Below are positions 2,046 to 61,162 of a stretch of DNA of 64,000 bases, piece by piece. The position numbers were made by a program, and so were the translations under genes. The DNA comes from Patescibacteria group bacterium (GTDB lineage Bacteria; Patescibacteriota; UBA1384; XYA2-FULL-43-10; 1-14-0-10-43-13). Position 1 is the stretch's first letter, and every line of letters begins with the position of its first letter. Below the pieces are notes generated by a model, which worked only from the letters and a program-made list of their open reading frames with translations, was not told the origin of the DNA and did no database searches. The stretch spans positions 113,467 to 177,466 of the forward strand of contig JBAYVE010000002.1 in assembly GCA_041674765.1 (NCBI GenBank), written 5' to 3'.

Positions 2046-2066
2046 AACTATAAGTTGAGGGGAATA

Positions 2067-35879: not shown

Positions 35880-36351
35880 AACAAAGTAAGTTAACGCTTA
35901 GGCGTTTAATTCACAAAGCGAGGGCTGGGACGCAAATTTTTTTTTATTTGCATTCCATTCTCGTTTTTTGTTTCTTCAAATCCGACTGGGACCTTGGGAC
36001 ATTAGGGCACTAGGTTTTCCGGCTGACTAGCAGAGAGGCCCCTTAAAAAATGCGGGTCTTGCCAAGTCAGCTTCTAGCGTTTCTCACCTTCTTCCTGGTT
36101 GGATTCGAGGAAACAATTTGTGAAAATTTTACAAATAGGTAGTCGAATGCTTGTACAATTGAACAAATTTGCTAAAAAAATAGAGCGTTGTAGAGATTAA
36201 AATAGTGTTTAAATATTCTGATTGCCAGAGTTAAGCTTTAACTTTGGCAAGCGGAATTTTCCGCTAATCGACTCAACCATGACGTGCCAATCCCATGGTG
36301 GGGTGGCACATTTTCATTTTGAGGACCTTTTAGGACAAGGAGGCGCACAAG

Positions 36352-38450: not shown

Positions 38451-38671
38451 GGAGTGTTTGCCGGATATATCCTCCCCCGACCGCCACGTGTAACGTGGGG
38501 CGGGGGTCTCTCTAGAGCGATCAACAGATCAATATTAAGGCATGAATATCAAGCTTTAAGTCGAAATGTTTATCCCTCTAGTAGCGATTAAAAAGAATTG
38601 CTATTGAATTATTTGAACAAGTAGGTATTAATTAATTAGCTTTATGCTAAAAGTTATCAAGAAAGGTAAAA

Positions 38672-39883
38672 ATGCGTTTTCTTAAATGCAAAAACGGTAA
38701 AATAAGTAAGTTCCTGTTCGCCGGAGCTGCTCTTTTACTGACTGTGTCTCAGTTTCTTACTCCCGGTGTCGCTTTGGCTGATGGCCCGAGATTCAATGAT
38801 GTACAGGGAGATTATCAGCTAATTCGTGGCACAAACAAGACCAGGAACGATTCTACTTGGCAAAATCCGGTTTCCGGAAATGCCGGAGATGAATTTTCCG
38901 CGATTGTTTACTATCACAACGGGGTACTAAACACGACCGCGAACGATGTCCGGATCAAGGTCAATTTGCCAAGTCAGACGACCAACAAATCGGCACTTAT
39001 TACGGCATCTATCTCTGCAGACAATGCACCTACAGTCACTGATACTATTGTAGGTGGCCAGATTGTTGGCAGCCACGGTTTAAGGGTAAATTTGGACCAG
39101 GATGCAGATATTACTTTTGTCCCAGGATCGACGAAATGGTTTTCTGATGTGACTTATGCAGATAAACCGGCTGGCCCTTTGCTTTTTGGGCAGGATGGTA
39201 GCGAATTATTTTCTACCGGTGGCCTGAAAATCGGCAATATCGCTGGGTGCTGGGAACATATCGGTTATGTTTCCTTCCGTTTCAAGACTAGTGCCAAGAC
39301 GGTAACCGCACCAAAGTTCACAATTGATAAGTTTGTCAGAAATGTGACTGTAAATGAAGCTAACTTCATCAAATACAATGATGCGAAGCCAACAGATATT
39401 TTGGAATATAAGATTGCATTTGCCAACACTGGTAACGCTTCAGCCAGCAATGTTTATTTAACCGATGTTATTCCCACAAACACTGCTTATGTCGCTGGAA
39501 GTACAAGGCTCTTTCTTGGTAATACCGCCACAAGCTTGCCTGATAAGATAACCGGAAATGATGGTCTGAATATCGGCACACTTGAAGCTGGCCAATCTGG
39601 TTATCTTCTTTTCAGAGTCAAAATTGCAAGCGGAGTCGCTAATGGCGAAATTCTCGTTAATACAGCAACATTGATTTTCAACAAAGAGAAAATCAGCGCA
39701 ACTGCACGGACAAAAGTGGTCGTTACACCAGTAACGCCCGGCCAACCAGACACAGGACCGGGTCTGCCCGAGACAGGAGCAGGTACCATACTGCTCTCGA
39801 CTCTAGCGGCGGCAGGAGCGATCATTTTCCTGAAATACAACCAAATCCGAACAAAAATGAAAATGCTTTCAAAGACTCTATAA
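38672..39883 (+). CDS. LPXTG-anchored cell-surface protein with DUF11-type repeats
   Basis: There is a signal peptide and a DUF11-like repeat (NVYLTDVIPTNTAYVAGSTRL). The C-terminus is LPETGAG followed by a hydrophobic helix and a KYNQIRTKMK tail, which is a sortase sorting signal. Confidence 0.75.
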   Translation: MRFLKCKNGKISKFLFAGAALLLTVSQFLTPGVALADGPRFNDVQGDYQLIRGTNKTRNDSTWQNPVSGNAGDEFSAIVYYHNGVLNTTANDVRIKVNLPSQTTNKSALITASISADNAPTVTDTIVGGQIVGSHGLRVNLDQDADITFVPGSTKWFSDVTYADKPAGPLLFGQDGSELFSTGGLKIGNIAGCWEHIGYVSFRFKTSAKTVTAPKFTIDKFVRNVTVNEANFIKYNDAKPTDILEYKIAFANTGNASASNVYLTDVIPTNTAYVAGSTRLFLGNTATSLPDKITGNDGLNIGTLEAGQSGYLLFRVKIASGVANGEILVNTATLIFNKEKISATARTKVVVTPVTPGQPDTGPGLPETGAGTILLSTLAAAGAIIFLKYNQIRTKMKMLSKTL

Positions 39884-42474: not shown

Positions 42475-43104
42475 ATGCTGCTGATCGTCGGTCTTGGTAA
42501 TCCAGGGAAAGAATATGAAGGCACCCGTCATAATGCCGGTTTTATGTTTGTCGAAAAAATGGCTGGCCAGCCAGAAATTGCTCCAGTTGAAGGTCCTCTC
42601 AATTTTAGACTAGAAAAAAAGTTTAGCGGATTGATTGCGGAGACAGAGGCCAAGGGCGAAAAAATAATCTTACTAAAGCCTCTGACCTTTATGAATCTAT
42701 CGGGGCAAGCTGTTCAAAAAGTAATGGATTATTATAAAATTTTACCTAAAGATTTGATTGTTGTGTCTGATGATGTTGATATACCGCTTGGAACAGCCAG
42801 AATTCGCCACGAGGGCTCGAGTGGGGGACAGAAAGGATTGCAGAATATTATTGACAGTGTTGGAACTGATCAATTCACAAGAATCCGGATTGGGATCAAT
42901 GCAATCGGCGGTGATGCTGACCAAACTTTTGAAATCACAAATAGGCCCGACACTACGCAATTTGTATTAAGTCAATTCAACAAGAGGGAAGCGGATATAA
43001 TCGATAATACAATGCAGGAAGCAGTTCGCTATCTCATTCAATATATCGGCGAAAAAGGCGAAATGCCGGCACATACGATTGAGGTGAAAATAGATTCATT
43101 GTAG
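42475..43104 (+). CDS. pth: peptidyl-tRNA hydrolase
   Basis: MLLIVGLGNPGKEYEGTRHNAGFMFV is a canonical Pth N-terminus. Confidence 0.9.
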   Translation: MLLIVGLGNPGKEYEGTRHNAGFMFVEKMAGQPEIAPVEGPLNFRLEKKFSGLIAETEAKGEKIILLKPLTFMNLSGQAVQKVMDYYKILPKDLIVVSDDVDIPLGTARIRHEGSSGGQKGLQNIIDSVGTDQFTRIRIGINAIGGDADQTFEITNRPDTTQFVLSQFNKREADIIDNTMQEAVRYLIQYIGEKGEMPAHTIEVKIDSL

Positions 43105-43110
43105 CGCTTG

Positions 43111-43524
43111 CCCTATGGACTATCATTTTTAGGATGAAAAAGGGCTATTCTAAATAGTGTCATCCTCGGGACCAATGGTGTTCTTGGAAATGGTGTCCGG
43201 GGATCCAATACCATATTATTGTTCGAACAAAGTGAGAAGTGATTCTTAGAACGTCATCCTGAACCGACGCAGTCGTCCCGAGCAGAGTCGAGGGATCTGT
43301 ATCTTGTTTCAGGATCTAATTCTTTTATTTGAGGACAAAGGGGCTCTTTCCGACCTGCCCGCAGATGCTAAAGCATCAGCTTTTGCAGGCGGGGGTCGCC
43401 CCTCTATCCTCAAACTCCAACTCCCTACACGGTATAGAGGAATTCTTTTTCTTCATAAAAAATCACTGGCTACGCCGTGGTCCTATGGGCTATCATTTTT
43501 TATGACGCAAAAGGACTATTGTAG
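43111..43524. repeat. ~45-bp direct repeats (43111-43157 and 43482-43524) bracketing two GTCATCC-type elements (43159-43212 and 43253-43316)
   Basis: ccctatggactatcatttttaggatgaaaaagggctattctaaatag is matched by cctatgggctatcattttttatgacgcaaaaggactattgtag. Between them lie gtgtcatcctcggga…tccggggatccaata and gtcatcctgaaccgacgcagtcgtcccgagcag. Confidence 0.5.
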
Positions 43525-43616
43525 TTGCTACAAATCAATTTTTCTGTTATATTTTATCAAATATTAATAATGTGGGAGCTTATAAAATAGGCGTTTGCAC
43601 CACAAAGGAGAACATT

Positions 43617-44423
43617 ATGTCCAAGAAAGACGAACTAGAGACAGCGGGAACAGAGGAAGTTTCCGAGAAAGAGCTGCTGAAGGAAGCAGAAGAGAGAGAA
43701 AAGCTTCGAAAAGAAAAAGAGGAAGCAGAAAAAGAAGCTCAAAAGGAAGAAGAAGCTGAGCAGAAAAAAGAGGAGAAAGCAGAGAAGGAAGCAAAGCGCC
43801 AGCAAACACAACGCCGAAAGCCACGACACGGTAAAAAATACAGAGCTTTGGCTGAAAAAGTCGAGAAAGACAAAGAGTACTCAATCGATGAATCAATTGA
43901 GCTCGCGATTAATACAAATCCATCAAAATTCGATGCGACTGTTGAAATGCACGTGAAAATAAATCCAAAGGAAAAGAGCGTTATTCGCGGAATGGTGAAG
44001 TTGCCTGGAGGCGTCACCAAGGAAAAGAAAGTTTTGGAAGTTACTATCGAAAATGTCGACGAAGTTGTTGCTAGCATTAAGGCTGGAAAAATTGATTTTG
44101 ATATTATGATCGCTGATATTAAGGTTATGCCAAAATTGGCTCAGCTTGCAAAGGTCTTAGGACCAAAGGGATTGATGCCTTCGCCAAAAGCGGGAACAGT
44201 GGTTCCGGACGTGAAAAAAGCAGCAGAGGAAATGGCCGGTGGAAAAGTTGAATATCGCGCTGACAAACAAAATATCGTGCATATGGCGATCGGAAAAATC
44301 TCGTTCGGACCAGAAAAGATAAAGCAAAATTTTGAAGCAATCTTAAGTCATCTGCCGAAAAAAATTGATTCTATCTATCTTACGACAACAATGGGTCCAA
44401 GCATCAGAGTCGCCAAGAAATAA
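43617..44423 (+). CDS. rplA: 50S ribosomal protein L1 with ~75-aa Lys/Glu-rich N-terminal extension
   Basis: AAGGAG RBS precedes the ATG at 43617. The L1 core runs from KYRALAEKV… to GPSIRVAKK. The track ORF starts at 43572. Confidence 0.9.
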   Translation: MSKKDELETAGTEEVSEKELLKEAEEREKLRKEKEEAEKEAQKEEEAEQKKEEKAEKEAKRQQTQRRKPRHGKKYRALAEKVEKDKEYSIDESIELAINTNPSKFDATVEMHVKINPKEKSVIRGMVKLPGGVTKEKKVLEVTIENVDEVVASIKAGKIDFDIMIADIKVMPKLAQLAKVLGPKGLMPSPKAGTVVPDVKKAAEEMAGGKVEYRADKQNIVHMAIGKISFGPEKIKQNFEAILSHLPKKIDSIYLTTTMGPSIRVAKK

Positions 44424-44621: not shown

Positions 44622-47600
44622 ATGAACCCGGACCAGTTTAAAAATCTTGATCGATTAGATCAGGAACTTGCACGAATTCAAAGAAGTACGAAGACATCGT
44701 GGCGGTTTTTTGCTGCACCACATGACTGGCTCCGAATGAAATTTCGCTGGTACTATAAGTGGCACCTAAACCCTTGGGCTCAAATGGTGCACAAATTCAG
44801 TTTTGGTCTTGTTACTGCAGGGATTTTGCTTATTGTGCTGACTCAATTCGGTCTGTTTGACTTTAATCAATCCACAAAAGCAGCAGCTGTTTCTGTTGAT
44901 ACCTCTACGACTGGGGAAGCGACCAATAATAGCTCTCAAAGAAAAACCTTTACCGATACTGTTAATAATACTCAATGGGCTTTTTATAATAATGGAGAAG
45001 CGATAGAATATTCGTACTCTTCTGATGGAAGTTCGTGGGTAAGCGCTGGAACATTGGCGCATAATACTCAATATTTTAGTACTAATTACAAAGCCATATC
45101 CGGCGCTGGTTACGTTCTCTTGGCTACGGAATGCAATACTTATGATGTTTGTATTTACCAAGGTTCATTGACTGGAACTAGCATTTCCTTTGGCAGTGCG
45201 GCAACTGTTTTTGACGGCGTATCTTTATCAAATAATTATTCTAGACCCACAGTTACTTATGATGGCGACAACTATATTTGGGTTGGAGCGGTAAAGGATT
45301 TCGGTAATTCTTCTCCCGATCACCTTCAAGCTCAGACTAAAAAATCATCTTCTGCTAACAATATCTCCGGCTGGGGATCAGTTCTGACAGCAGGTAATAA
45401 GATGAAAATACTCACCAATGTAATTATCCTCAATCAGTCCGGTTCAAGTATGTATCTTGTTGCCTCAAATGGTTCTAGTGTTACCGGATTTAAATATACA
45501 ACCGAAGTTCCGGTGTGGACGAGTGCCAATGATGGTGGGGAGGCTGCCTGGTTTGAGTTTGGGGATGGGGGATTCAGTGCGGCGGTTAATGCGGTAGCTA
45601 TATCCGGAACTGATGTTTATGTCGGTGGCAGTTTTATCAAAATTGATTCGTTGACAACGAACTTCATTGCTAAATGGAATGGCTCTTCGTGGTCTACTCT
45701 CGGAAGTGGTGTCGGCGGCCCAGTTTATGCCCTAGAGGTTGTTGGGACGGATCTTTATGTCGGCGGAAGTTTCAATAGCGCCGGAGCGGTTGCTGTCAAC
45801 AATCTTGCCAAATTTAATACACTTACTTCTGAATGGTCAAGTGTTGGTGGCGGCGTAGTTGGTGTGGAAGAAAATAGTGCCATTGTATATTCTTTAATCG
45901 AATCAAATTCCAGCCTCTATATCGGAGGAAGCTTTGTTTTAGCAGGTGAAACGAGCGCAAAATCAATTGCTAAATGGGATATTGCGGCTGAGTCATGGAG
46001 CGCTCTAGGGAATGGCCTTATTGATATGAATGATAGCACCGCAATTGTACGCAGTATTGCGATTGATGGTTCAAGTGTTTATGCAGGTGGGATGTTCGTT
46101 CAGGCTGGCGAGGTAGCCGCCAATGTAGTGGCGGTCTGGGATGGTAATTCATGGTCCAGTATGGGGTCTCCTCAAATGGATATGGCGATGACGGTCGCAA
46201 TTTATAATTCGGAAGTGTATATCGGTGGTCTGGGCTGGAGTGAGGGCAATGCAGCAAAATGGAATGGTTCTGCGTGGGAATATATTAATTTTACGAGCGA
46301 AGTCAGAACCCTTGTAGTCAATGATGGCAAATTGTATGCGGGTGGAGGTTTTCAGGCTCTTGGCGAGGATTCTTTTAAGTTTATCGCTGTTTATAATGGA
46401 GTTTCTTGGAGTGGGCTCGAGCAAGATCTAAACAATACTGTGTCTCAGCTAACTTTTTCAGGTAACGATTTATATACCGTGGGATCCTATACGGCTGCAG
46501 GCACTGTTGCAGCGAAGTATTTTGCAAAATATAGTGATGGACAATGGCAGGCCCAAGGGAGTGTTGGGGGGATAGACGGTGATGTAAATACAATCGCAGT
46601 TGATGACAGTAACAATATTTATATTGGGGGCACTTTCAGAACAGCTGGCGGTATTTCTGCTAACAGAATTGCGAAATATGACGGAGATACCTGGAGCGCT
46701 CTTGGGACAGGGACTTCTGGCGAAGTTAAGGTAATAAAAGTGGTTGATGATATTGTTTACGTAGGCGGATCCTTTGCAAGTGCGGGAGGGGAAGCTACCT
46801 CAAACATCGCGTCATGGAATCCTGCAACTAGTACATGGAGTGCTTTGGGCAGCGGCACCGATAGCACGGTTTATACACTTGCTGATTTTGGGAGTTCTCT
46901 ATACGCAGGAGGTAATTTCTCTACGGCTGGAGGAGGAGCTGCTAGCAAAGTGGCAACATGGAATATGACTGCAGGAACTTGGAGTGCTCTTGGTAGTGGC
47001 GTTAACGACTTAGTTCTTTCAGTCGCCACCGATCCAGAAGGGAATTTATATGTTGGCGGAAGCTTTACTTCGCCTGGCTCGAAAATTGCTAAGTGGAATG
47101 GCTTGGAGTGGTCGGCATTAGGAACTGGCGTCAATAATTTGGTTCGATCATTGATATTTGTTGATAGTAAACTATATGTGAGTGGACATTTTACAACGGC
47201 TGGCGGCGTATCGTCAAACTTGGTGGCAATGTGGGATGGGGAAAACTGGAATAGTATGGGTCTGGCTGGGAGCGTTGTATACACGATCGCTGCTGACGCT
47301 TCAAATAATATTTATGCTAGTGTTCCGACTAATGGAAACCGCAGTGCTCAAGTAAAATGGAATGGCGAAGTTTGGGATAACTATAGTAACGGTTTTGCTG
47401 GTTCTGGAGTTTATTCGTCTTTATTTATTGGCGATAGATTGTACATCGGCGGTTCAACAACAGTTTTTTCTTCTTATGGAATGAGCGGAACTTCCCTCGG
47501 CTACCTTGAGAATGCTATCGCAAGGAGTACAGATTCAGGGTCAGAAGTGTCTGCAGTAACCGACTCTCTCGGTAATATTCATCTGGCATATTCTGCTTGG

Positions 47601-50600
47601 TATAATTCCGGACGAGCAATGTATAGTAAGCATTTTGATGCATCTACCAGCCGATGGGGGATTGATTACTCGATTGGAACCGAAGGATCACAACCTTCTC
47701 CGAGCATTGCGGTAAATCCTTCCAACAATGATATTTATGTGTTTTTGATTGCTAGCAACAACAGTGTTAAATACTACAAATGGGCCCTATCGACTGATCC
47801 AGAAGTACCTTCGTCTTGGGAACTTGTCGATAATATTTATAGCACAGGCACTAATACAGGTGTTTCTGTTAGTGAATATGTTTCAGGGTATAAGCTTGGA
47901 ATGATATGGACCAACGGCACTGGCTCTCCTTATACTGTTTATGCTGATTCCTTAAATTTTATTACATATGGTACTTTGAGTGGTACTGTTTACACGGATC
48001 GTACGGCAGCTACTCATGCTGGTGCCGGTGTGCAGGTCAGATTGGTAATCGATGGTACTTTAAACGAAGAAGTTGCTACTACCGATGAGAATGGCGCTTA
48101 CTCTTTTGTAACAGAGGTTGGGACGAACGATAACGTCCTAATATTTGCTGATCCTAGCGCCGGCAATATTTATGGAAATGTCGTGATGACTGCAAGCGGT
48201 GCAGATTTAACGGGCATCGATATTTACGGTAATGCTGTTATTGCTAGAAACGAAACGGCTTCGCAGGTTACAAATGAAACATTTCAAGCTGCTCACGGCT
48301 CTCTCACAGAGACAGGGATATTGTATTCCTCCGGGTTACCCATCGATTCGTCGGTGGATGGAACTTATTTTGACCTTTTGGTTTGGCCTGGCAAGAGTAT
48401 GACAGCTAGTGCGGACGTTCGTGTTGAAGATCTTGTGATAGGTACTGGTGCTACTCTAAGTGGAATGGCCTCTGCAGGTGAAAATGCATTTATGGTTTCC
48501 GGAGACTTTGTGAATAATGGTACTTTTGTTGCCAATCAGCAAAAGCTTATAGTTGAATGCTACGAAGGCTTTTGTAATGGCAGCAGTTCCCAAATTGTCA
48601 CTACTGGGGGAACCAATGCCACCTTTTACGATATTGATATTTCTAAACAGATTGGAGATTCTGTAATTATCGATGGAGACCTTAAAATTACACATGATCT
48701 CAATGTGATACACGGAACAATTGATTTGCTCACAAATACCCCTGATATAGATCTTTCTAATGATCTCTATATTTATACAAATGGTGATATGACAACAATG
48801 CCAGGAGATCTAACTTTTCTTGGGGACAGTGAATCCGAGCTGAGATTGATGAATTCTGATGTTTTTAGCCATATCATCATCGGCGGAGGAGAGGGCAAAA
48901 TTTTATCGTTGATCACATCATCCCTCTTGGCTGATACATTTACTATCAATGCCGGCAATATTTTCAAGCCGCCATACGAAGCGACGGCCACGATCAATGT
49001 GAATTGGGAAAATTATGGTACTCTTGATACTTCAAGCGGAAACTTGGCGTTGGTTTTAGAAGGTTCCGCGGAATCAAAAATATACGGCAACAATACTTTT
49101 TCTCAATTTTACTGCACAACCCCTGATAAAACGATTAAATTTGAAAGTGGTAAAACTCAAAATATTACCGGTGCTTTGAATATTACTGGTACCTCTGGGC
49201 ATAATGTTGTCTTGGCAATGCAGGGCGGGACTTCTGGTGTCGACTTTTGGAATATCGATCCCGATACCAGCTCTAGGACGGTTGATTACGTTAAAGTTAC
49301 TGATTCGACAAATTTAGACGAAGTTTATATCGATCCTCCAAATTACGATCCGGAGAGCAGCCATACTGTAAATTGGTTTCCAGCCGCTCCAACGGTAACA
49401 ACAGGAGCAAAGGATTCTTATCTAACGACGGATTTTTCATCCGACTGGATTGAGGCAAAGGGATCCATCACTGCTACTGGAGGTAAAAATCCGACTATTC
49501 GGGGTTTAAAATATAGCACTGTTGGCGAGCAGGACGATAGCTCTTCGTTTGACAGCGGTGATTACTCAACAGGCGATTTCACAAAAACTCTTTCCAATCT
49601 TGAAGTGAATACTCTCTATTATATCCGCGCCTATGCTACAAATACCGGCGGGACAGGTTACGGCAGCTGGATTTCAATGTATACCAAGGCCAATACTCCG
49701 GGCATTTCCGTTGCCGGGGATTATGACGAGGTCAGCGGCTATCATCTGGACGCTACTATTTCGCCGAATCTAAATTCCGATGGTACAGAATATTACTTGC
49801 AATATTCAACCGACGGAACCAATTTTTATGATCCAACGGGAATGGCTTGGGGGCAGACTGAAAAATCATACATTTTCACAACTGATAAAGACGGTGCTCA
49901 TATTCAACCATATACCCAATACTGGCTAAAGGTTAAAGCTCGAAACGGGGATAATATCGAGACCGACTATTCATCTTCATCAGCCGATGTTACGCCGCCA
50001 GCTGCACCAACAATAACAAATCCGGCAGTTTCAAATATCTGCAGCACTACAGCAACTGTGTCTTGGACAGCTTCCGTAAGTGGGGACAAATACGACCTAT
50101 CTTATGGTACTGATGCTAGCGCCAGCAATACCGCAGTTATCAATAATATCGCAACAACTAGTTATGAGTTGACGAATTTAGTAGAAGGTGACAAGTATTA
50201 TTTCAAAGTAAGGGCAGTTTCGAATGCAAATGGAACGGGTGCTTATTCATCAATTTCTGATCCTTTTACTCCAACAGCATGTGTGGCTCCTATTGCGCCA
50301 AATGATTTTTCGGGGACCCCTGCTTCAGCCTCAAGTATTGATTGGTCCTGGACTGATAGCTCGACGATCGAAACGGGCTACAAAGTGCATAATTTGACGC
50401 ATAGTTCTTTGTCCGGCGATCTTCCTGCAGATTCTATTGCCTGGAGCGAACAAAGTTTGGAAGTCAATACTGCGTATACTCGCCACGTTAATATTTTTAA
50501 CGAGATAGGCAATAATGATTCAAATTCGGCCACGGTTTACACAAAAGCAAATACTCCGGGCCAACCATCGGTTAACCAAATTGATTCAATTTCCTTAAAA

Positions 50601-53600
50601 GTTATTGTTTCTGAAGGGACAGATAATCCAAGCTATACCCATTATGAAATATATGAAACAACTACCGGTAAATATGTCAGGCAAAGTGATGGCACGCTGC
50701 AAGCAACTGAGGATTGGCAAACTTATTCCGGCTGGGGTGGAGCGAGTGGAATAACAATCAACGGATTAGACAGCAATACAAGCTACACCTTCCAAGTTCG
50801 AGCTGCTAACAAAGCTGCTATGGGTCTAGACAATGTTTTGACAGATTGGTCTGCTAGCACAACCAATTCGACTTATCCAAAATATTCTATAACTATCTCT
50901 ATAGACGGCACGGGAGAAGGCACTGTTTCTCCTTCCGCTGTTGATCCGGTCAATAGAGGAACAAGTGTTGACCTTACAGCCTCTCCATCGATTAACTCAA
51001 ATTTCACAACTTGGACCGGATGCACCTCTGTATCTGGCAATGTTTGCCATCTTTCCAATATTACTTCGGACAAATCTGTCACAGCTACTTTTGCGATCAA
51101 AACTTTCACCGTCCAGATATCCAAAGCAGGAAACGGAGCTTCCGTAAGTGATACTTCGCCAAATACAGAGCAGACAGTAAATTATGACGGAAGCATCGAC
51201 ATCACGGCTTTACCCCATATTTCAGCGAACTTTACCTCCTGGTCTGGATGCGATTCTGTCGAAGGTGCAGTCTGTCACCTCACAAATATCACATCCAACA
51301 AATCTGTCACAGCTACTTTTGCGATCAAAACTTTCACTGTTGCGGCAACATCCACCGGTTGTGGTTCGGTTTCAAACTCTTCGCAAGCAATAAATTACGG
51401 CTCGGATTCTGCTGTTATGACCTTCATTCCAAACTCAGGCTGCTATGTCTTCAATGTTGTCGCCGATGGCGATTCAGTCGGTTCGCCATCTTCCAAACAA
51501 TTTACAAATATCACACAAAATCATACCGTCGACGTGGAATTTCGTGAATATCCTACGGCAACGCTATCGATTAATTCCGGTAGCCTAAAAACCAATCAGG
51601 ATACAGTATCATTATCAATAACCCACAATACTACTGCCTTGGAAATGAAAATATCAAATAGCTCTGATTTAACGGGTGCAGAGTATACGCCGGTTCGATC
51701 ATCTATTAGCAATTGGATTTTGGCCGATTCATCTAACGACGGCGTTAAGACGGTCTATCTAAAGGTGAAAGACTCAGTTGGCCATGAGTCTGGAGTGGTT
51801 TCCGCCACCATATCACTCGATAAAACTCCGACTGATGCCCCGCTTAACTTAGTGGCTGTTGGCGGTAAAACCACTACTTCTCTCTCCTGGAAGAATCCTG
51901 TGGCCACCGACTTTACAAAAATGGCGGTTTTTCGTTCTACATCGCCGAATTTCATTCCGGATCTGGGTGCAAACAAGATCGGCGACACCAGAAATAACCT
52001 TGAGCATAGTTATATCGATACCAACGTAGCCAATGGTGTTCTTTACTATTATCGGATAAAAGCAGTTGATGATGCTGATAATTATTCAATATCCTCTAAT
52101 GAGGCATCAGCAAAAGCTGATAACGATCTACCTTCCGCACCAGGTCTGCCGACAATCACCGAAAAAACAAACTCAATTGATGATATAGAGTACACAAATA
52201 GGGGAAATAATACGATAACATGGCCAGCCTCTACAGATCTTAACTCTGGCTTGAAGCATTACTCAATTATGCTTACCATACCCCCGCTAGCTTCGAACAA
52301 TTGCGCTGAAACCACTACCGCTAATTCCCTAACATGTAATTTTTCAGATGGTATCTATAGTATCGCCGTTCAGGCACATGACAATACCGGTAATTCCAGT
52401 GCTTTCTCGCAAACATTATATTTTAATGTCGATACGTCAGCCCCGACGCTGACTGAACCACTTAGTATCTCCGATGCTCCTACCGATAGGTCAGCGCTCG
52501 ATTACAAAGCGCTTCTCTCGTGGAGCAAAGCTTCAGATGGCAATACGGGCGGTATCAGCAGCGGAATACTGGGCTATATCGTCTATCGGTATGAAGATCC
52601 GATCTTACTTCCAAATCAAATAGTAACGAAGGTCAGTACTGATTCCAGCGGAAATCCAAGCTATGTTGACGCAATTACCCCTGATAAAAACTATGATTAT
52701 TCGGTGCTTGCTGTAGACAAAGCAATGAACCGCTCGAGTAAAATCTCAAATAGTATAAATGTTGCCGGAATATTGCCAGGGGAGGGAGAACTGATAATCT
52801 CTGATATAACATCAACACCATCTGATCAGATGGGAGAGAAAACATTTGCTACTATTTCGTGGAAAACATCTGTTCCTTCTACCAGTATGGTCAGTTATGG
52901 TCTTGATACCGGTTATTCTCTGCAATCTCCACTTGACACCGGTCTAAATACGATCCATACAATGGTACTTAGCGATTTGGAGTTCAGCAAAACTTATCAC
53001 TTCAAAGTTTTCTCCGAGGCGGCAAATGGAGATCGTGCAAATTCTGATGATTACACTTTTACTACCAAGGATATCTTGAAGGATGATGATGTCTGGAGTG
53101 TTATACCAGGGGTGATTATTCGAATTGACGATGTTATTTCAAGAATAATCAATGAAATCAACGTTCGAGGGACTGCGCAGACTGTAGCCTTGCCTGTCGC
53201 TAGTTCGGCTGCTGTAGTTGCGGCATCTGGGGCAGCTGCTGCCGCTGCGCCGATTGCCAATGCGATGACCCTCTTTTCATTCCCAGAATATTTACGGGCA
53301 TTGTTATATTCAATATTATCAATCGGTTCAAGGCGTAAAAGGCGGGAATGGGGCAAGGTTGTCGAAGAGGGGACTGGCATCCCGATCGCACAAGCACGGC
53401 TAAGCCTGATTAGGTTGGAAAAGAATATTGCCGGTAACCCAATTGAAAAGATAGTTGCAACTACATATTCTGACAAGAAGGGCAATTATGCTTTCATCGC
53501 GGAGAAAGGTTCCTACCGTCTCTCAGTAGATAAAGATCTTTACAAAGTCTCGAATCTAAAGGACGTTTATCATCCCTCTGATGTTATAAAGGTAAAGGAA

Positions 53601-54116
53601 GACAAAGAAGGGCTGATTATTCCAAGTATCGTCCTTTCGATGGACAGCCATTCTGCAAAAAAGAAATTGTTGAGTTTAAATAGACTTAGTAAGTTTGAAA
53701 AAGTACTTTTCTATGTTTCCCTGGTCTTCCTGATTTTCGGCACTTATACATCGATACTAAATCTTCTAGCCAATCCCCGAAATCCGCTGAACTTTCTGAT
53801 TATTATTTATCCGATTCTCTGGGTTGTTACTCTGGCGAGTTTATTCAAAGTCTCCCCATGGGGCAATGTCGTTGATAAAACAAATTCTCAGGGTGTTTCA
53901 TTGGCTTTGGTTAGGATTATGGATAAAGGCGGAAAAGTGCTCGTAAAGACAGCAATTACCGACCAACAGGGCAAATACCAGACCACCGTGCCTAAAGGTG
54001 AGTACAAGATTCTGGTAGCCAAACAGGGCTACTTCCAAGCTGAGCCGGAGACCTTGAATGCGACAAATGAACTAAATGCTTTGAACAAACAGATTGAGGT
54101 CGTTCAAAGAAATTAG
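44622..54116 (+). CDS. giant (3164 aa) membrane-anchored surface protein with repeated beta-propeller-like, fibronectin-III/Ig-like and carboxypeptidase-regulatory-like domains
   Basis: An N-terminal TM is present. There are about 15 units of LYVGGSF…AGG…IAKWNG..WSALG (~50 aa). These are followed by fn3-like blocks (TPPAAPTITNP…VSWTAS) and a near-duplicated segment (CHLSNITSDKSVTATFAIKTFTV and CHLTNITSNKSVTATFAIKTFTV). The C-terminus has 3-4 TM segments flanked by CarbopepD_reg-like motifs (DKKGNYAF…GSYRLSV; DQQGKYQTTVPKGEYKILV). Confidence 0.8.
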   Translation: MNPDQFKNLDRLDQELARIQRSTKTSWRFFAAPHDWLRMKFRWYYKWHLNPWAQMVHKFSFGLVTAGILLIVLTQFGLFDFNQSTKAAAVSVDTSTTGEATNNSSQRKTFTDTVNNTQWAFYNNGEAIEYSYSSDGSSWVSAGTLAHNTQYFSTNYKAISGAGYVLLATECNTYDVCIYQGSLTGTSISFGSAATVFDGVSLSNNYSRPTVTYDGDNYIWVGAVKDFGNSSPDHLQAQTKKSSSANNISGWGSVLTAGNKMKILTNVIILNQSGSSMYLVASNGSSVTGFKYTTEVPVWTSANDGGEAAWFEFGDGGFSAAVNAVAISGTDVYVGGSFIKIDSLTTNFIAKWNGSSWSTLGSGVGGPVYALEVVGTDLYVGGSFNSAGAVAVNNLAKFNTLTSEWSSVGGGVVGVEENSAIVYSLIESNSSLYIGGSFVLAGETSAKSIAKWDIAAESWSALGNGLIDMNDSTAIVRSIAIDGSSVYAGGMFVQAGEVAANVVAVWDGNSWSSMGSPQMDMAMTVAIYNSEVYIGGLGWSEGNAAKWNGSAWEYINFTSEVRTLVVNDGKLYAGGGFQALGEDSFKFIAVYNGVSWSGLEQDLNNTVSQLTFSGNDLYTVGSYTAAGTVAAKYFAKYSDGQWQAQGSVGGIDGDVNTIAVDDSNNIYIGGTFRTAGGISANRIAKYDGDTWSALGTGTSGEVKVIKVVDDIVYVGGSFASAGGEATSNIASWNPATSTWSALGSGTDSTVYTLADFGSSLYAGGNFSTAGGGAASKVATWNMTAGTWSALGSGVNDLVLSVATDPEGNLYVGGSFTSPGSKIAKWNGLEWSALGTGVNNLVRSLIFVDSKLYVSGHFTTAGGVSSNLVAMWDGENWNSMGLAGSVVYTIAADASNNIYASVPTNGNRSAQVKWNGEVWDNYSNGFAGSGVYSSLFIGDRLYIGGSTTVFSSYGMSGTSLGYLENAIARSTDSGSEVSAVTDSLGNIHLAYSAWYNSGRAMYSKHFDASTSRWGIDYSIGTEGSQPSPSIAVNPSNNDIYVFLIASNNSVKYYKWALSTDPEVPSSWELVDNIYSTGTNTGVSVSEYVSGYKLGMIWTNGTGSPYTVYADSLNFITYGTLSGTVYTDRTAATHAGAGVQVRLVIDGTLNEEVATTDENGAYSFVTEVGTNDNVLIFADPSAGNIYGNVVMTASGADLTGIDIYGNAVIARNETASQVTNETFQAAHGSLTETGILYSSGLPIDSSVDGTYFDLLVWPGKSMTASADVRVEDLVIGTGATLSGMASAGENAFMVSGDFVNNGTFVANQQKLIVECYEGFCNGSSSQIVTTGGTNATFYDIDISKQIGDSVIIDGDLKITHDLNVIHGTIDLLTNTPDIDLSNDLYIYTNGDMTTMPGDLTFLGDSESELRLMNSDVFSHIIIGGGEGKILSLITSSLLADTFTINAGNIFKPPYEATATINVNWENYGTLDTSSGNLALVLEGSAESKIYGNNTFSQFYCTTPDKTIKFESGKTQNITGALNITGTSGHNVVLAMQGGTSGVDFWNIDPDTSSRTVDYVKVTDSTNLDEVYIDPPNYDPESSHTVNWFPAAPTVTTGAKDSYLTTDFSSDWIEAKGSITATGGKNPTIRGLKYSTVGEQDDSSSFDSGDYSTGDFTKTLSNLEVNTLYYIRAYATNTGGTGYGSWISMYTKANTPGISVAGDYDEVSGYHLDATISPNLNSDGTEYYLQYSTDGTNFYDPTGMAWGQTEKSYIFTTDKDGAHIQPYTQYWLKVKARNGDNIETDYSSSSADVTPPAAPTITNPAVSNICSTTATVSWTASVSGDKYDLSYGTDASASNTAVINNIATTSYELTNLVEGDKYYFKVRAVSNANGTGAYSSISDPFTPTACVAPIAPNDFSGTPASASSIDWSWTDSSTIETGYKVHNLTHSSLSGDLPADSIAWSEQSLEVNTAYTRHVNIFNEIGNNDSNSATVYTKANTPGQPSVNQIDSISLKVIVSEGTDNPSYTHYEIYETTTGKYVRQSDGTLQATEDWQTYSGWGGASGITINGLDSNTSYTFQVRAANKAAMGLDNVLTDWSASTTNSTYPKYSITISIDGTGEGTVSPSAVDPVNRGTSVDLTASPSINSNFTTWTGCTSVSGNVCHLSNITSDKSVTATFAIKTFTVQISKAGNGASVSDTSPNTEQTVNYDGSIDITALPHISANFTSWSGCDSVEGAVCHLTNITSNKSVTATFAIKTFTVAATSTGCGSVSNSSQAINYGSDSAVMTFIPNSGCYVFNVVADGDSVGSPSSKQFTNITQNHTVDVEFREYPTATLSINSGSLKTNQDTVSLSITHNTTALEMKISNSSDLTGAEYTPVRSSISNWILADSSNDGVKTVYLKVKDSVGHESGVVSATISLDKTPTDAPLNLVAVGGKTTTSLSWKNPVATDFTKMAVFRSTSPNFIPDLGANKIGDTRNNLEHSYIDTNVANGVLYYYRIKAVDDADNYSISSNEASAKADNDLPSAPGLPTITEKTNSIDDIEYTNRGNNTITWPASTDLNSGLKHYSIMLTIPPLASNNCAETTTANSLTCNFSDGIYSIAVQAHDNTGNSSAFSQTLYFNVDTSAPTLTEPLSISDAPTDRSALDYKALLSWSKASDGNTGGISSGILGYIVYRYEDPILLPNQIVTKVSTDSSGNPSYVDAITPDKNYDYSVLAVDKAMNRSSKISNSINVAGILPGEGELIISDITSTPSDQMGEKTFATISWKTSVPSTSMVSYGLDTGYSLQSPLDTGLNTIHTMVLSDLEFSKTYHFKVFSEAANGDRANSDDYTFTTKDILKDDDVWSVIPGVIIRIDDVISRIINEINVRGTAQTVALPVASSAAVVAASGAAAAAAPIANAMTLFSFPEYLRALLYSILSIGSRRKRREWGKVVEEGTGIPIAQARLSLIRLEKNIAGNPIEKIVATTYSDKKGNYAFIAEKGSYRLSVDKDLYKVSNLKDVYHPSDVIKVKEDKEGLIIPSIVLSMDSHSAKKKLLSLNRLSKFEKVLFYVSLVFLIFGTYTSILNLLANPRNPLNFLIIIYPILWVVTLASLFKVSPWGNVVDKTNSQGVSLALVRIMDKGGKVLVKTAITDQQGKYQTTVPKGEYKILVAKQGYFQAEPETLNATNELNALNKQIEVVQRN

Positions 54117-54564: not shown

Positions 54565-55083
54565 ATGGCAAAAACAAGAGAGAAAAAAGAGGAATTGATT
54601 GCTAGATTAGAAGAGGAAATTTCTGGTGCCAAAGCTGCAGTGTTAGTTGACTACAAAGGTCTGAAAGTCAAAGAAACTGAGGATTTGAGGAACGCTTTGC
54701 GTGAGAAGGGCATTAGTTTCAATGTTGCTAAAAACTCCTTGGTTAAAATCGCTTTAAAGAAAAATGGGATTACTTTTGAGGAAGGTATCTTCAAAAAACC
54801 TATTGCGATCGCTTTTGGCAAAAACGATGAGGTTGCCGCTGCAAAAGAGATAGATCTTTTCGCAAAGAAACATGAGGCCATGGAAATTCTTGGCGGAATT
54901 CTTGAAAAGAAGATGATTGATGCTGAAATGGTCAAGAAATTAGCTTCCTTGCCATCACGCGAAGAGCTTTTGGCCAAAATGGTCGGATCGATCGCTTCAC
55001 CACTATCCGGCATGGTCAACGTTCTTGCCGGCAATCTTCGGGGTTTGGTCAACGTGTTAAAAGCTGTAAACAACAAGCAGTAA
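54565..55083 (+). CDS. rplJ: 50S ribosomal protein L10
   Basis: MAKTREKKEELIARLEEEISGAKAAVLVDYKGLKV is a canonical L10 sequence. Confidence 0.9.
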   Translation: MAKTREKKEELIARLEEEISGAKAAVLVDYKGLKVKETEDLRNALREKGISFNVAKNSLVKIALKKNGITFEEGIFKKPIAIAFGKNDEVAAAKEIDLFAKKHEAMEILGGILEKKMIDAEMVKKLASLPSREELLAKMVGSIASPLSGMVNVLAGNLRGLVNVLKAVNNKQ

Positions 55084-55103
55084 TCTTATAAACTGAGTAT
55101 AGT

Positions 55104-55144
55104 GTCATTCTCGGGCAGGCAACGCCATGACCCGGGAATCCAAT
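55104..55144. repeat. GTCATCC-type palindromic element (copy between rplJ and rplL)
   Basis: gtcattctcgggcaggcaacgccatgacccgggaatccaat. Confidence 0.5.
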
Positions 55145-55181
55145 ACATTAGGTTAATTAAAAACGTTTAATAAGGAGAATC

Positions 55182-55589
55182 ATGGAAGAGAAGAAAGAAG
55201 TAGAGGTTCCTGAGAAATTCAAGGATCTCGTCGAAAAAATTGAGAAATTAACAGTTCTCGAATTGGCAGAACTTGTAAAAGTTCTCGAAGAGAAGTTTGG
55301 TGTCTCAGCCGCTGCTCCAATGATGATGGGCGCGATGCCTGCCGCTGGTGCCTCATCTGAGCCAGTTGAAGAGAAAACAGCATTTGATGTTGTTCTGACT
55401 AGCGCAGGCGCACAGAAGATCAACGTTATCAAAGCTGTTCGTGAAATCAAGCCAGAACTTGGTTTGAAAGAAGCCAAGGATTTAGTTGATGCTGCTCCAA
55501 AAGATATCTTGAAAGGTGCTAAGAAAGAAGATGCTGAAGCTGCAAAGGCAAAGCTTGAAGCTGCCGGCGCAACTGTCGAAATGAAATAA
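55182..55589 (+). CDS. rplL: 50S ribosomal protein L7/L12
   Basis: AAGGAGA RBS. Has an Ala-rich hinge. The C-terminal domain runs [24 protein letters not shown]…[14 protein letters not shown]. Confidence 0.95.
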
Positions 55590-55645
55590 GCAAGCGAATA
55601 AGCTAGTAAGCTGATAAGCTTGTAAGTGATAAGAATATACCACCT

Positions 55646-55667
55646 GGAGCCGAAAGGCTCCTTTTGG
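55646..55667 (+). terminator. Rho-independent terminator after rplL
   Basis: GGAGCCgaaaGGCTCCTTTTGG. A second hairpin (CCTCCCCttttcgaGGGGAGG) follows about 50 bp later. Confidence 0.6.
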
Positions 55668-55794
55668 TATAATATTAATAGTCTTTTTACATCCTTTCTT
55701 TTGTCATTCTTGGGTTTCATTCCTCCCCTTTTCGAGGGGAGGTTAGGTGGGGTTTATTGAATTTCAATACCTTGTATTAGTTGCTTGCAAATAA

Positions 55795-55842
55795 GGAATT
55801 GGATCCCCGTGTCATGGCTGCCGCCTGCCCGAGGATGACACT
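55795..55842. repeat. GTCATCC-type palindromic element (reverse orientation, between rplL and tgt)
   Basis: ggaattggatccccgtgtcatggctgccgcctgcccgaggatgacac is the reverse complement of the copy-1 core. Confidence 0.55.
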
Positions 55843-55871
55843 ATTGAGAAGACCAATTAAAAATTTACAAA

Positions 55872-57206
55872 ATGTCTTTTAAATTAATCAAAAAATTAGA
55901 TAACGGTACCCGAATCGGGGAACTGGCGACGCCTCATGGTAAGATTGAGACGCCCTTTTTCATGCCGGTTGGAACTGTCGGCAGCGTGAAATCGGTTTCG
56001 CCGAATGAATTAAAAGAGCTAGGTTCAGAGATCATACTTAGTAATACTTATCATTTGTACTTGCGACCAGGGGAGAAACTGATCAAGGATTTTGGCGGAC
56101 TCCACAAATTTATGAGATGGGATCGGCCAATCCTTACAGACTCTGGGGGATACCAAGTTTTTTCTTTGGCAAGAGGGGACAACCATAATAAGAATGTCAT
56201 TTATGGTTCTGTCATTCCCGCGGAGGCGGGAATCCAGAAGACCAAGGAATTGGATCCCCGGGTCACCGTTCGACCCCGAGCGACTCACGGTCGAGGGGAG
56301 CCCGAGGATGACACCATTATTAGGGACAGCAAAAGGGGTCTTGTCAAAATTACCGAGGAAGGTGTGGAATTTAAATCATTTCTCGATGGCAGCAAACATT
56401 TTTTCACTCCTGAGAAAGTTATCCAAATTCAGCTTGATCTGGGCGTCGATATTCTGATGCCGCTAGATGTTTGTCCGAGCGGCAAAGCAACTCGAAAAGA
56501 AGTGGAAGAATCGGTTCGATTAACTATTTTATGGGCAAAAAGAGCAAAAGAATATTTTGATTGCAAGATACAAGAAACAAGAGACAATAATCAAAAAAAT
56601 AACAATACAACAATAAAACAATATGACAATCGACCTCTTCTTCATGGTATCGTTCAGGGTGGTTTATATGAAGATTTAAGAAGAGAGTGCGCCAAAGAAC
56701 TTATCAAATTGGACTTCGATGGCTATTCGGTCGGCGGATTGGCTGTTGATCATGAAACAAGGGATATGTGGGAGACGGTAAAACTGATGGGGGAGATATT
56801 GCCTCAGGATAAACAAAGGTATCTGATGGGTGTCGGTACACCGGATGATATTATAAAAGCTACAGAATTAGGCATGGATATGTTTGATTGTGTCTTGCCG
56901 ACACGTTTGGCGAGACACGGAAATGTGTATGTCAGAGCAGAAAGCCAAAAACAAAAAGCTAAAAATATTAACCTATATGAACTCATTAACCTCCTCAAAT
57001 CCGAATATCGAACCGATAGGGGAGTGATAGATGAAAATTGTGGCTGTGAAGCTTGCCAGAAGGGAACGGGTTTCTCAAAGGCCTACATTTCCCATCTAAT
57101 TCGTTCAAATGAGATTTTAGGGCTCAGACTTGCGACGTTGCACAATCTCTATCAATATCTGGAGCTTATGAGAGAACTCGGTTGGAGAGTGGAACGGGGA
57201 AAGTAG
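55872..57206 (+). CDS. tgt: queuine tRNA-ribosyltransferase carrying an in-frame repeat-element insertion
   Basis: Conserved Tgt blocks are present (FMPVGTVGSVK, PILTDSGGYQVFSL, YLMGVGTPDD, CxCxxC zinc site). An extra ~45-aa segment (…NVIYGSVIPAEAGIQKTKELDPRVTVRPRATHGRGEPEDDTII…) is encoded by a GTCATCC-type element. Confidence 0.85.
   Translation: MSFKLIKKLDNGTRIGELATPHGKIETPFFMPVGTVGSVKSVSPNELKELGSEIILSNTYHLYLRPGEKLIKDFGGLHKFMRWDRPILTDSGGYQVFSLARGDNHNKNVIYGSVIPAEAGIQKTKELDPRVTVRPRATHGRGEPEDDTIIRDSKRGLVKITEEGVEFKSFLDGSKHFFTPEKVIQIQLDLGVDILMPLDVCPSGKATRKEVEESVRLTILWAKRAKEYFDCKIQETRDNNQKNNNTTIKQYDNRPLLHGIVQGGLYEDLRRECAKELIKLDFDGYSVGGLAVDHETRDMWETVKLMGEILPQDKQRYLMGVGTPDDIIKATELGMDMFDCVLPTRLARHGNVYVRAESQKQKAKNINLYELINLLKSEYRTDRGVIDENCGCEACQKGTGFSKAYISHLIRSNEILGLRLATLHNLYQYLELMRELGWRVERGK
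56211..56316. repeat. GTCATCC-type palindromic element inserted in-frame inside tgt
   Basis: gtcattcccgcggaggcgggaatcc…ggaattggatccccgggtcacc…gggagcccgaggatgacacc. It includes an 8-bp perfect hairpin (ATTCCCGCggagGCGGGAAT). Confidence 0.6.
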
Positions 57207-59930: not shown

Positions 59931-60063
59931 GGGAATGACAAAGAAATAGGGGAATGACAGAAAGTCTGGGGAATGACAAAGAAAACAGGAGAATGACAAA
60001 AAAAGGGGGAATATCAGAGAAATATGGGAATAATAGAGAAATAAGGGAATAGTAGATAGACAG
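59931..60063. repeat. iteron-like array: seven ~19-bp direct repeats of GGGAATGACAAAGAAA decaying 5'->3'
   Basis: gggaatgacaaagaaatag / gggaatgacagaaagtctg / gggaatgacaaagaaaacag / gagaatgacaaaaaaag / ggggaatatcagagaaatat / gggaataatagagaaataa / gggaatagtag. It is preceded by the hairpin ATTCCCGCcttcGCGGGAAT and lies 105 bp upstream of the 60169 gene. Confidence 0.6.
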
Positions 60064-60168
60064 AGAAGTTGGCAAACTATTGAAAATTTCTTTGCTCCGT
60101 ATAAAGCAGAGTCCGTCGATGCAATCCTGCTAGACGGTTGACACATATATCCTGAGGAGGATACGACG

Positions 60169-61017
60169 ATGAGGTTTTTATTCCTCTTAGTGTTGGCCGT
60201 CGCATTATTGTCGACGACGGCAGCGTGGGCAAGTGGCTCAACCATGCCCGCGCCGGACAAAAAAGGTGCCCCGTCGGCTTCGCTGAAAAAAGACGGAAGT
60301 ACCTATGAATTCCACTTCCATTTCGATGGCAGTGGAAATCGGCGTACTACCCGCCGTCAGCATTCGCAGCCCTCTGTGTCTCCTGCAACCACCCGGTCGC
60401 AGGAAGACAGCCAGAACAAAAACATCTCCCGTTTGGACAGCAATCAGCAGGAGATGGGGGCAGCGATCAATCAGCTCGCTGCCAATGACACCTCACAGAA
60501 TCAGGCGATTGCAGCTGGCCAGCAAAAAGACCAGCAGCAAGACAATCAAATCCAGGCGAATGAAAAAAAATTGGAGGAGAACATTATGCCGATGTGGGCA
60601 ATAATCTTAGGCCTTGTACTGCTGTTCTTGTTAGTTGCTGGCACGATCACATTCATGTGGATCCGTGCATCCATCGCTGGTAAGGCAGCAGCTGCGGCAA
60701 CACCGCCGCCGACTACTCCTGGCGATCCACCCCTGAACCCTCCGTTGCTCCCTGTCGATCTTAACCTCGACGGGATCAAGGAGGTCAACCCCGACGAAGT
60801 CATCAAAGCGAATTTCGCTTTGGATTACCGAAATGATAGGCTTCGAGGGGTTCGATTGAGCCTACGTCCGGGATCTGCGCCGGCTGAGTCCGCCTCGGAC
60901 CGCAGCGGAGGTGGAAATGTTATTAACAATAGCATTTTCCTGAATGGCGCGAAATCCCTCGGAGATGCTCTTCGGGGCGACGCGCCGGAGCCCGAGGCCC
61001 CTCCGCAAACATCTTAA
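60169..61017 (+). CDS. signal-peptide + mid-protein TM hypothetical protein, Gln-rich, Pro-rich linker (GC-rich island 2)
   Basis: GGAGG RBS. The signal peptide is MRFLFLLVLAVALLSTTAAWA. The internal TM is WAIILGLVLLFLLVAGTITFMWI. Confidence 0.55.
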   Translation: MRFLFLLVLAVALLSTTAAWASGSTMPAPDKKGAPSASLKKDGSTYEFHFHFDGSGNRRTTRRQHSQPSVSPATTRSQEDSQNKNISRLDSNQQEMGAAINQLAANDTSQNQAIAAGQQKDQQQDNQIQANEKKLEENIMPMWAIILGLVLLFLLVAGTITFMWIRASIAGKAAAAATPPPTTPGDPPLNPPLLPVDLNLDGIKEVNPDEVIKANFALDYRNDRLRGVRLSLRPGSAPAESASDRSGGGNVINNSIFLNGAKSLGDALRGDAPEPEAPPQTS

Positions 61018-61162
61018 CTGCCCCGCCCCCAGGGATGGGAAACGAGGGAATACCGAATGGGAAGTTGCTCAAGTCTTCGGACAAGGGCTCTTCCCATTTT
61101 TTTATTACTAAAATACCACCTGCAAGTGCCAGGTGGTATTTCAAAAAGGTTATCATTTTATG

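Follow-up and report, generated by a model that had tools for sequence, protein, structure and literature searches.

A giant, probably surface-anchored protein encoded between rplA and rplJ in a Berkelbacteria-like patescibacterium

What kind of protein is encoded by a 9.5 kb gene that stands between the ribosomal protein genes rplA and rplJ, and how might it be exported, held and used by the cell? The locus lies in a stretch of 64,000 nucleotides (nt) from a Patescibacteria group bacterium (GTDB lineage Bacteria; Patescibacteriota; UBA1384; XYA2-FULL-43-10; 1-14-0-10-43-13), taken from NCBI GenBank assembly GCA_041674765.1, contig JBAYVE010000002.1, positions 113,467 to 177,466 of the forward strand, and referred to here as the window. 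At window positions 44622..54116 (+), the listing of open reading frames (ORFs) and the translation contain one unbroken frame of 3164 codons plus a stop. The ORF is real and intact, and its call in a first-pass annotation made from the letters of the sequence is borne out. Candidate phyla radiation (CPR) bacteria, or Patescibacteria, account for a large part of bacterial diversity, and the majority are believed to be attached to other cells. To our knowledge, little is established about how they attach.

The location and layout of the giant protein are well supported, and it is judged moderately probable that it is a cell-surface protein with a head, a stalk and an anchor in a Berkelbacteria-like CPR bacterium. 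The ORF, the order of its domains, the conservation and placement of three cassettes (a leader, a head and a C-terminal module) and the all-beta propeller models are direct results of the analysis. Pfam annotation returned Rax2, fn3, Flg_new_2 and two CarboxypepD_reg domains, and matched no enzyme family. Together with hydropathy, these domains support the giant, exported and membrane-anchored architecture proposed in the first pass, whose anatomy was therefore largely right. What that account lacks is the conserved leader at the N-terminus, the head supradomain with its constant size, and the place of the gene between two ribosomal protein genes, rplA and rplJ. It had also called the architecture typical of the giant adhesins of episymbiotic ultrasmall bacteria; the CPR origin agrees with this, and the adhesin function is one that we infer.

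Giant surface proteins are a known kind of protein in ultrasmall bacteria, but the leader and anchor cassettes of this one are undescribed. What is new here is the pair of conserved cassettes that bracket the protein, and that it has in common with many surface proteins of such bacteria, and the head supradomain of fixed size. None of the three units, leader, head or C-terminal module, has a Pfam or NCBIfam model that spans the whole of it. A search of the full-text literature on giant CPR surface or transmembrane proteins and on a CarboxypepD_reg anchor in CPR, which took in the C-terminal module rather than the leader and head, found no paper on that module.

Leader and membrane module

The leader occupies aa 1-87 (44622..44882, +), as delimited by hydropathy, jackhmmer and a MAFFT alignment of 20 leaders (alignment A5). 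It has a basic n-region and ten residues that are invariant in the alignment (S22, T23, H34, R38, W43, Y44, Y45, W47, H48 and H57), all of which are present in the giant protein. The hydrophobic core at aa 57-79 (44790-44858), of about 22 residues in the alignment, is the N-terminal transmembrane (TM) segment of the earlier annotation, recovered here by hydropathy. A few residues past this core, an invariant A87 takes position -1 of an AxA-like site (T85-K86-A87/A88). The segment aa 12-74 is conserved in paralogues too. The leader has no Pfam or NCBIfam family match.

An iterated search of a set of 109 proteins with the C-terminal module identified the leader, of about 85 residues, in 20 proteins, all of them carrying the module. 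It is present in 12 of the 20 module proteins of at least 1500 aa versus 8 of the 89 shorter ones, the latter mostly having ordinary short signal peptides. A scan that started from the leader itself identified 138 relatives in metagenome contigs. Only three of the 19 leader-bearing ORFs with a complete 3' end finish in the C-terminal module and 16 do not. The leader is thus found on proteins with other C-termini and behaves as an independent export signal, leader and anchor being independent cassettes. A strict pairing of the leader helix with the C-terminal module, in which the protein would be anchored at both ends, was rejected on these counts (20 of 109 module proteins; 3 of 19 complete leader ORFs). 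We take the leader to be an extended and probably cleavable signal peptide that serves large exported proteins.

Many of the large leader-bearing proteins end in an fn3-like domain followed by an amphipathic helix of about 20 residues (e.g. '...LEIIINALESAFAGLSKIGK') and lack a TM segment. This combination of fn3-like domain and amphipathic helix also precedes the C-terminal module in the giant protein.

Extended signal peptides on very large surface proteins are known from the ESPR of type V secretion, from YSIRK-G/S and from the KxYKxGKxW leaders of serine-rich-repeat adhesins. Like these, the leader described here has a conserved stretch added ahead of its hydrophobic core and is enriched on very large exported proteins. 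However, there is no sequence similarity to any of them, the motif here being ST...H...R...WYYxWH...H.

The C-terminal membrane module occupies aa 2853-3164 (53178..54113, +). It begins with an Ala-rich helix 1 (aa 2859-2882, 53196-53267) and a short helix 2 (aa 2887-2900, 53280-53321), followed by the basic cluster RRKRR (aa 2904-2908, 53331-53345) and a first beta-sandwich, D1 (aa 2911-3006, 53352-53639). A basic juxtamembrane helix then leads into the TM segments TM3 and TM4 (aa 3009-3074, the TM part at 53703-53843), and a second beta-sandwich, D2 (aa 3080-3162, 53859-54107), closes the protein. Hydropathy places hydrophobic segments at aa ~2855-2900, 3028-3046 and 3056-3074, and the hydrophobic helices lie at aa 2859-2900, 3028-3050 and 3055-3074. 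Two CarboxypepD_reg domains and hydrophobic helices were found where the first pass had described C-terminal TM helices interleaved with sandwiches of this type.

Residues 2853-3161 fit a module family (alignment A1) that runs through two helices, a basic cluster, a beta-sandwich, a TM hairpin and a second beta-sandwich, the best relative having 52% identity. At E<=1e-3, the C-terminal 341 residues match 3144 cluster representatives by exhaustive HMMER search; the number falls to 1142 at E<=1e-10 and to 45 at E<=1e-30. Among the best 150 representatives, 121 match over nearly the full length (~300 residues), almost always no more than about 30 residues from the C-terminus, in proteins that range from 237 to 5960 aa. 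Where the ectodomains of family members were scanned, they are sandwiches of extracellular type: Flg_new_2, fn3, Big_12 and Calx-beta. In an alignment of 37 members the mean column identity is 38%, with conserved landmarks. The first pass had considered the C-terminal bundle unusual for an adhesin; this is true in that it is unlike the anchors of model organisms, but the module is widespread and conserved.

The AlphaFold2 model of the module, with a predicted local distance difference test score (pLDDT) of 83, has an Ala-rich helix of 24 residues, a helix of 14 residues, a sandwich, a helix of 42 residues, a TM helix and a second sandwich. The 42-residue helix corresponds to the basic juxtamembrane part together with a TM segment. 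Across the family, lysine and arginine cluster directly behind helix 2, at 4.7 per 10 residues, in front of TM3, and behind TM4. Hardly any occur in the TM3-TM4 loop or in the segment ahead of helix 1. Over the 37 members the lysine and arginine counts are ~11.7 versus 1.7, favouring the cytoplasmic side for both CarboxypepD_reg domains. By the positive-inside rule, this distribution would place both sandwiches in the cytoplasm, with helix 1 as the first span and helix 2 at the inner interface.

The anchor is of a different kind from those of the LPXTG and MSCRAMM adhesins, such as SdrD and the CnaB-domain pilins. The giant protein has no LPXTG, its hydrophobic-plus-RRKRR element lies 260 residues before the end, and it appears to be held by an integral-membrane module rather than a sortase signal. 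A PEP-CTERM or LPXTG-like signal at 'FPEY + hydrophobic + RRKRR' was considered and rejected, since PEY is not conserved in distant members and 260 residues follow. Pfam and NCBIfam searches identified no beta-barrel translocator, RTX/T1SS or ESPR domains in the protein or its leader, which would have pointed to a type V autotransporter or a type I RTX protein, and no SLH or comparable cell-wall binding domain of the S-layer kind. Because the defining features of these systems were looked for and are absent, this is not an LPXTG, autotransporter, RTX or SLH protein.

About 5 kb upstream, 38672-39883 encodes a protein of 403 aa with a signal peptide, DUF7619/DUF11 and a classical sortase sorting signal at its end (LPETG, a hydrophobic stretch and a basic tail). 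The organism therefore has sortase-type anchoring too.

Propeller head and stalk

Homologues found with the full protein mostly have only its propeller blades in common, but a subset has a larger unit, the head supradomain (aa ~90-1112). This is an all-beta domain split in two by an insertion. The N-part (aa 90-322, 44889..45587, +) has about 18 strands in the AlphaFold2 model (m9e47bff933c4, pLDDT mostly 85-93), and the C-part (aa 956-1112, 47487..47957, +) has about 12 strands, as seen with jackhmmer and in the model. Between these two halves are inserted 14 Rax2/Kelch-like four-stranded blades (aa 323-955, 45588..47486, +).

The N-part, of ~235 aa, has the consensus 'QRKTFyD.vN..HWAFYYNG.AIEYSYS.D..tW' and is kept in nine named homologues and in others. 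The consensus of the C-part, of ~155 aa, is 'GN..L.Y ... W ... FWI ... YKK ... WT.G.GSPY'. By jackhmmer, the unit measures 1011-1034 aa across both parts in six homologues and ~985-1043 aa in eight more, in which the head is C-terminal. The near-constant span indicates that the head is a supradomain of fixed size (~1,020 aa), placed at either protein terminus according to lineage. It occurs in many phyla. A profile of the split domain without the blades has no match in PDB or Pfam, and NCBIfam has no family for aa 1-1113.

The blades are units of ~46-54 aa in tandem at aa ~322-955, with the motifs LY[VI]GG.F, IAKW[ND] and W.ALG. Internal BLASTP comparison of the array gives E-values down to 3e-17. 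Pfam Rax2 (PF12768) scores 111.3 bits against a gathering threshold of 28.8, and DUF5122 (PF17164) 29.5 against 27. The tandem propeller-like repeats of ~50 aa seen in the first pass are confirmed, but they number 14 rather than about 15, both by motif count and by the 14 four-stranded units of the AlphaFold2 model. In that model the blades close into propellers; modelled as seven-bladed, 14 blades would suffice for two of them. The N-part and C-part together probably form a third propeller-like domain of about seven blades (4+3), as suggested by their strand counts of ~18 and ~12, the sole basis for this reading.

The blades are shared with the propeller proteins of the Rax2/DUF5122 ('delta-60 repeat') kind, including more than 100 large bacterial proteins at 30-46% identity. 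The difference is that the blades here are inserted into another conserved domain, giving a supradomain of fixed size. The best Foldseek matches of the head are the periplasmic sensor domains of BT4663 (PDB 4a2m) and BT4673 (PDB 3ott), with E-values of 1e-18 to 1e-16, TM-scores of only 0.23-0.33 and 11-12% identity. These belong to hybrid two-component systems of Bacteroides and have tandem seven-bladed propellers outside the cytoplasmic membrane; weak Reg_prop Pfam matches are also found here. In contrast to BT4663 and BT4673, the giant protein has no kinase or regulator output.

The stalk begins with a weak transthyretin/CarboxypepD_reg-like sandwich (aa ~1118-1195, 47973..48206, +; Pfam CarboxypepD_reg E=0.027, below the cut-off). 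Sandwiches resembling it are repeated after the head in three homologues. The next ~500 residues (aa ~1196-1690, 48207..49691, +) are beta-rich with no Pfam, NCBIfam or PDB sequence match, and are possibly a beta-solenoid. A sequence search of PDB with aa 1104-1693 likewise gave no match. Within this region, aa 1444-1604 are conserved at 31-37% identity in the proteins of L004 and L005 and in P0121, the first of these being from a related genome described below. Then come fn3-type domains (aa ~1691-2087, 49692..50882, +; Pfam fn3 at 76-87 bits in three stretches) and three Flg_new_2, or divergent InlB B-repeat, domains (aa 2088-2318, 50883..51575, +; three Pfam stretches). Further Ig-like and fn3-like domains fill aa 2319-2815 and are followed by an amphipathic helix linker at aa ~2816-2852 (together 51576..53177, +; weak Pfam Big_13, fn3 at 25.7 bits and Pur_ac_phosph_N at 31.5 bits). 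The gathering thresholds are passed by fn3 (PF00041; 86.9 versus 25 bits), Flg_new_2 (PF18998; 71.4 versus 23.6) and CarboxypepD_reg (PF13620; 60.5 versus 32.3), and the fn3 and Flg_new_2 matches account for the fn3/Ig-like modules noted before.

A near-perfect internal duplication and a recent expansion of repeats had also been claimed for the protein, and neither is supported. The first two Flg_new_2 units (aa 2088-2164 and 2165-2240) are identical at 43 of 77 residues (56%) and at 135 of 231 nt (~58%). Near-identity is confined to a 23-aa tail (21 of 23 residues and 58 of 69 nt), which contains the sole exact direct repeat of at least 20 nt in the gene, a 40-nt patch (51070-51109 = 51298-51337). 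Tandem Repeats Finder and a repeat finder, run on the gene, identified nothing else notable. A recent duplication of the units was therefore rejected on the pairwise identities and the length of the longest exact repeat. Within the patch, 13 codons agree at every synonymous site, against ~58% DNA identity in the rest of the two units, a pattern suggestive of a short gene-conversion tract.

The locus and its relatives

Close relatives of the C-terminal part were found only in three Candidatus Berkelbacteria metagenome-assembled genomes (MAGs), in a scan of one genome per species that used a narrower alignment (A3). More distant members of the module family are named Parcubacteria or Patescibacteria, with one cluster member named Promethearchaeota. 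An identical protein is recorded on a 222-kb metagenome contig in ENA, and the NCBI title is 'MAG: fibronectin type III domain-containing protein [Patescibacteria group bacterium]'. The several sources of this protein appear to be one assembly, so they give no independent confirmation.

Upstream of the giant gene is rplA, for ribosomal protein L1 (43617..44423, +; Pfam Ribosomal_L1; called gene of 268 aa), which ends 198 nt before it. Downstream, 448 nt after its end, is a block (54565..57206, +) of rplJ (54565-55083), rplL (55182-55589) and tgt (55872-57206), identified with Pfam. Orthologous giant genes are found upstream of rplJ-rplL-tgt in two related genomes, L003 (a 971-kb JGI contig) and L004 (Berkelbacteria ELA241). 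In both of these, rplJ is separated from the giant gene by a small fn3-like gene, a gene of ~100 aa and a fused MacB-type ABC transporter (L003 10833-13787; L004 6780-9728); none of these three is found at this position in the window. Its last ~900 aa (~890) line up, at 43-45% identity, with P0121 and with the protein of L004; the two orthologues at the same locus are colinear over this part. The L003 orthologue is broken into 5255 and 1588 aa by a run of N (L003 5966-5975) inside near-identical Flg_new_2 repeats, and the intact gene probably encodes ~6,800 aa. The Flg_new_2 region is evidently hard to assemble, given the position of this run.

Scans for tRNA and Rfam families gave no match in the window and showed no L10 leader in the interval from the giant gene to rplJ. 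Promoter and terminator scans gave signals no higher than the shuffled expectation.

The ORF of rplA, at 43572-44423, has an N-terminal extension of ~85 residues, rich in Glu and Lys, ahead of the canonical start 'HGKKYRALAEKV'. The Pfam L1 match spans just aa 163-276 of this 283-aa ORF. There is no rplK (L11) between pth (42475-43104) and rplA, as 43105-43616 holds only a low-quality ORF of 87 aa. Hence the usual rplKAJL arrangement is interrupted both before and after rplA.

Elsewhere in the window, 2055-4778 encodes a protein of 907 aa with an N-terminal TM segment, long Gly-rich repeats and no Pfam match, a probable surface protein. A PilB/T2SSE-type ATPase with an MshEN domain (8999-11389) is indicative of a type IV pilus or a competence system in this part of the genome. 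The guanine-plus-cytosine (GC) content is 0.48-0.50 at 36000-38500 and 60000-64000, versus ~0.41 elsewhere. The ORFs in these stretches (36352-37614, 37611-38450, 60169-61017 and, on the minus strand, 61163-63778) have no Pfam match, and several have starts like those of signal peptides. The high-GC stretches may be acquired DNA.

Possible function and competing explanations

An extended signal peptide of ~87 residues, with its basic n-region, hydrophobic core and AxA-like site, would send the nascent chain to the Sec translocon and would probably be removed after Ala87. Some 2,770 residues would be exported, and the C-terminal module of ~310 residues would hold the protein in the cytoplasmic membrane. 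The mature N-terminus would then be the multi-propeller head of ~1,020 residues, spaced off the cell by the transthyretin-like domain, the beta-rich segment of ~500 residues and roughly twelve domains of the fn3, Flg_new_2 and Ig-like kinds. There the head would bind its ligand, most likely a surface glycan or protein, either on a partner cell or in the surroundings. Cleavage of the leader, the membrane topology, ligand binding and the role as an adhesin are what we infer from these features; for the adhesin role, the architecture, the fold analogies and published proposals for CPR bacteria (PMC8080830) are what point to it.

Giant membrane proteins with fn3 and DUF11 domains have been described in CPR bacteria and proposed to serve host attachment, and in Vampirococcus lugosii the ten longest proteins are 1392-4163 aa (PMC8080830). 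The protein here has in common with these its size class, predicted membrane location, adhesion-type domains (fn3, DUF11-like and propellers), an ultrasmall CPR host and the proposal of attachment. The two are likened by description, V. lugosii belonging to the Absconditabacteria rather than being Berkelbacteria-like, and the N-terminal leader, the ~1,020-aa head and the C-terminal module are not in that report (PMC8080830). The Omnitrophota, also ultrasmall, have giant proteins with mostly extracellular domains and C-terminal TM regions that are proposed to act in attachment to host or prey (bioRxiv 10.1101/2023.11.21.568195). However, these are 10-25 times larger and have SecA-like DEAD domains and many TM regions, neither of which is found in the giant protein here.

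Several points weigh against a simple cleaved leader, anchored stalk and binding head. The three invariant His and the WYYxWH motif of the leader are more conserved than the n-region of a plain signal peptide requires, and the leader may do more than targeting and might stay uncleaved. Helices 1 and 2 of the C-terminal module have low confidence in the AlphaFold2 model, and a cytoplasmic side for both beta-sandwiches would be unusual for this fold. The fold similarity of the head to enzymes (CylK, PL42, GH145 and GH74) is as good as that to binding proteins. The gene neighbours are ribosomal and give no functional hint.

The similarity to enzymes raises the question of whether the head is a glycoside hydrolase or polysaccharide lyase acting on a host or environmental polysaccharide, with the stalk and anchor serving only to position it. 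The fold similarity to GH145, PL42, GH74 and PL25 is not accompanied by more than 9-13% identity, and no Pfam, NCBIfam or PDB sequence or profile match to enzyme families was found, even with the profile of the split domain. As the scores of lectins, integrins and WD40 proteins are just as good, the signal is that of the seven-bladed fold and not of a catalytic family. A surface-tethered glycan-active enzyme is thus distinctly unlikely. It is also unlikely that the protein is a structural component of the envelope or coat, forming a fibrous surface layer or spacer with no specific partner recognition. The head is conserved in size and sequence and recurs at protein termini in many phyla, as is typical of a binding or catalytic module rather than a spacer, and Pfam identified no SLH or other S-layer domains.

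A transmembrane sensor, in which the propeller ectodomain binds a ligand and the C-terminal module relays this to two cytoplasmic beta-sandwiches, would be in keeping with the Foldseek matches to BT4663 and BT4673 and with the charge distribution over the 37 family members. However, the TM-scores are low (0.2-0.3), no kinase, receiver, cyclase or DNA-binding domain was found with Pfam or NCBIfam, and a stalk of ~1,700 residues between sensor and membrane fits poorly with signal transmission. We regard it as very improbable. Least credible of all is that the ORF is an artefact of the metagenome assembler, being chimeric or containing a collapsed or expanded repeat. The run of N exactly within the Flg_new_2 repeats of the L003 orthologue would allow for this, as would the fact that the 'two contigs' with the identical protein appear to be one assembly. 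Yet the frame is open over 9.5 kb, its GC content (0.41-0.45) is like that of the flanking DNA, and the longest exact internal repeat, 40 nt, is far under the k-mer size of 141 suggested by the contig name k141_. The head span is equal in over a dozen unrelated homologues, and the last ~900 aa are colinear with the two orthologues at the same locus. With an open frame, no long repeats, a constant head size and colinear orthologues, such an artefact is hardly to be expected.

A surface protein with a propeller head for binding therefore remains the favoured explanation. It is possible, although doubtful, that the leader and the C-terminal module form a CPR-specific route of export and anchoring, in which the leader is a new class of extended signal peptide, with its invariant His and WYYxWH, that has a dedicated factor, and in which the sandwiches of the anchor are cytoplasmic. 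If this is true, giant adhesins would be linked to the inside of the cell, either physically or by signalling. If, on the other hand, the cassettes are plain signal and anchor sequences, this is an ordinary, well-annotated giant adhesin-like gene.

In either case there are three cassettes that can be searched for: the leader, with its 138 relatives in one metagenome scan, the head of fixed size, in several phyla, and the C-terminal module, with more than 1,000 cluster representatives. Profile models of these could flag CPR surface proteins and help in choosing heads for ligand screening. They would also allow it to be asked whether CPR cells couple binding at their surface to the cytoplasm.

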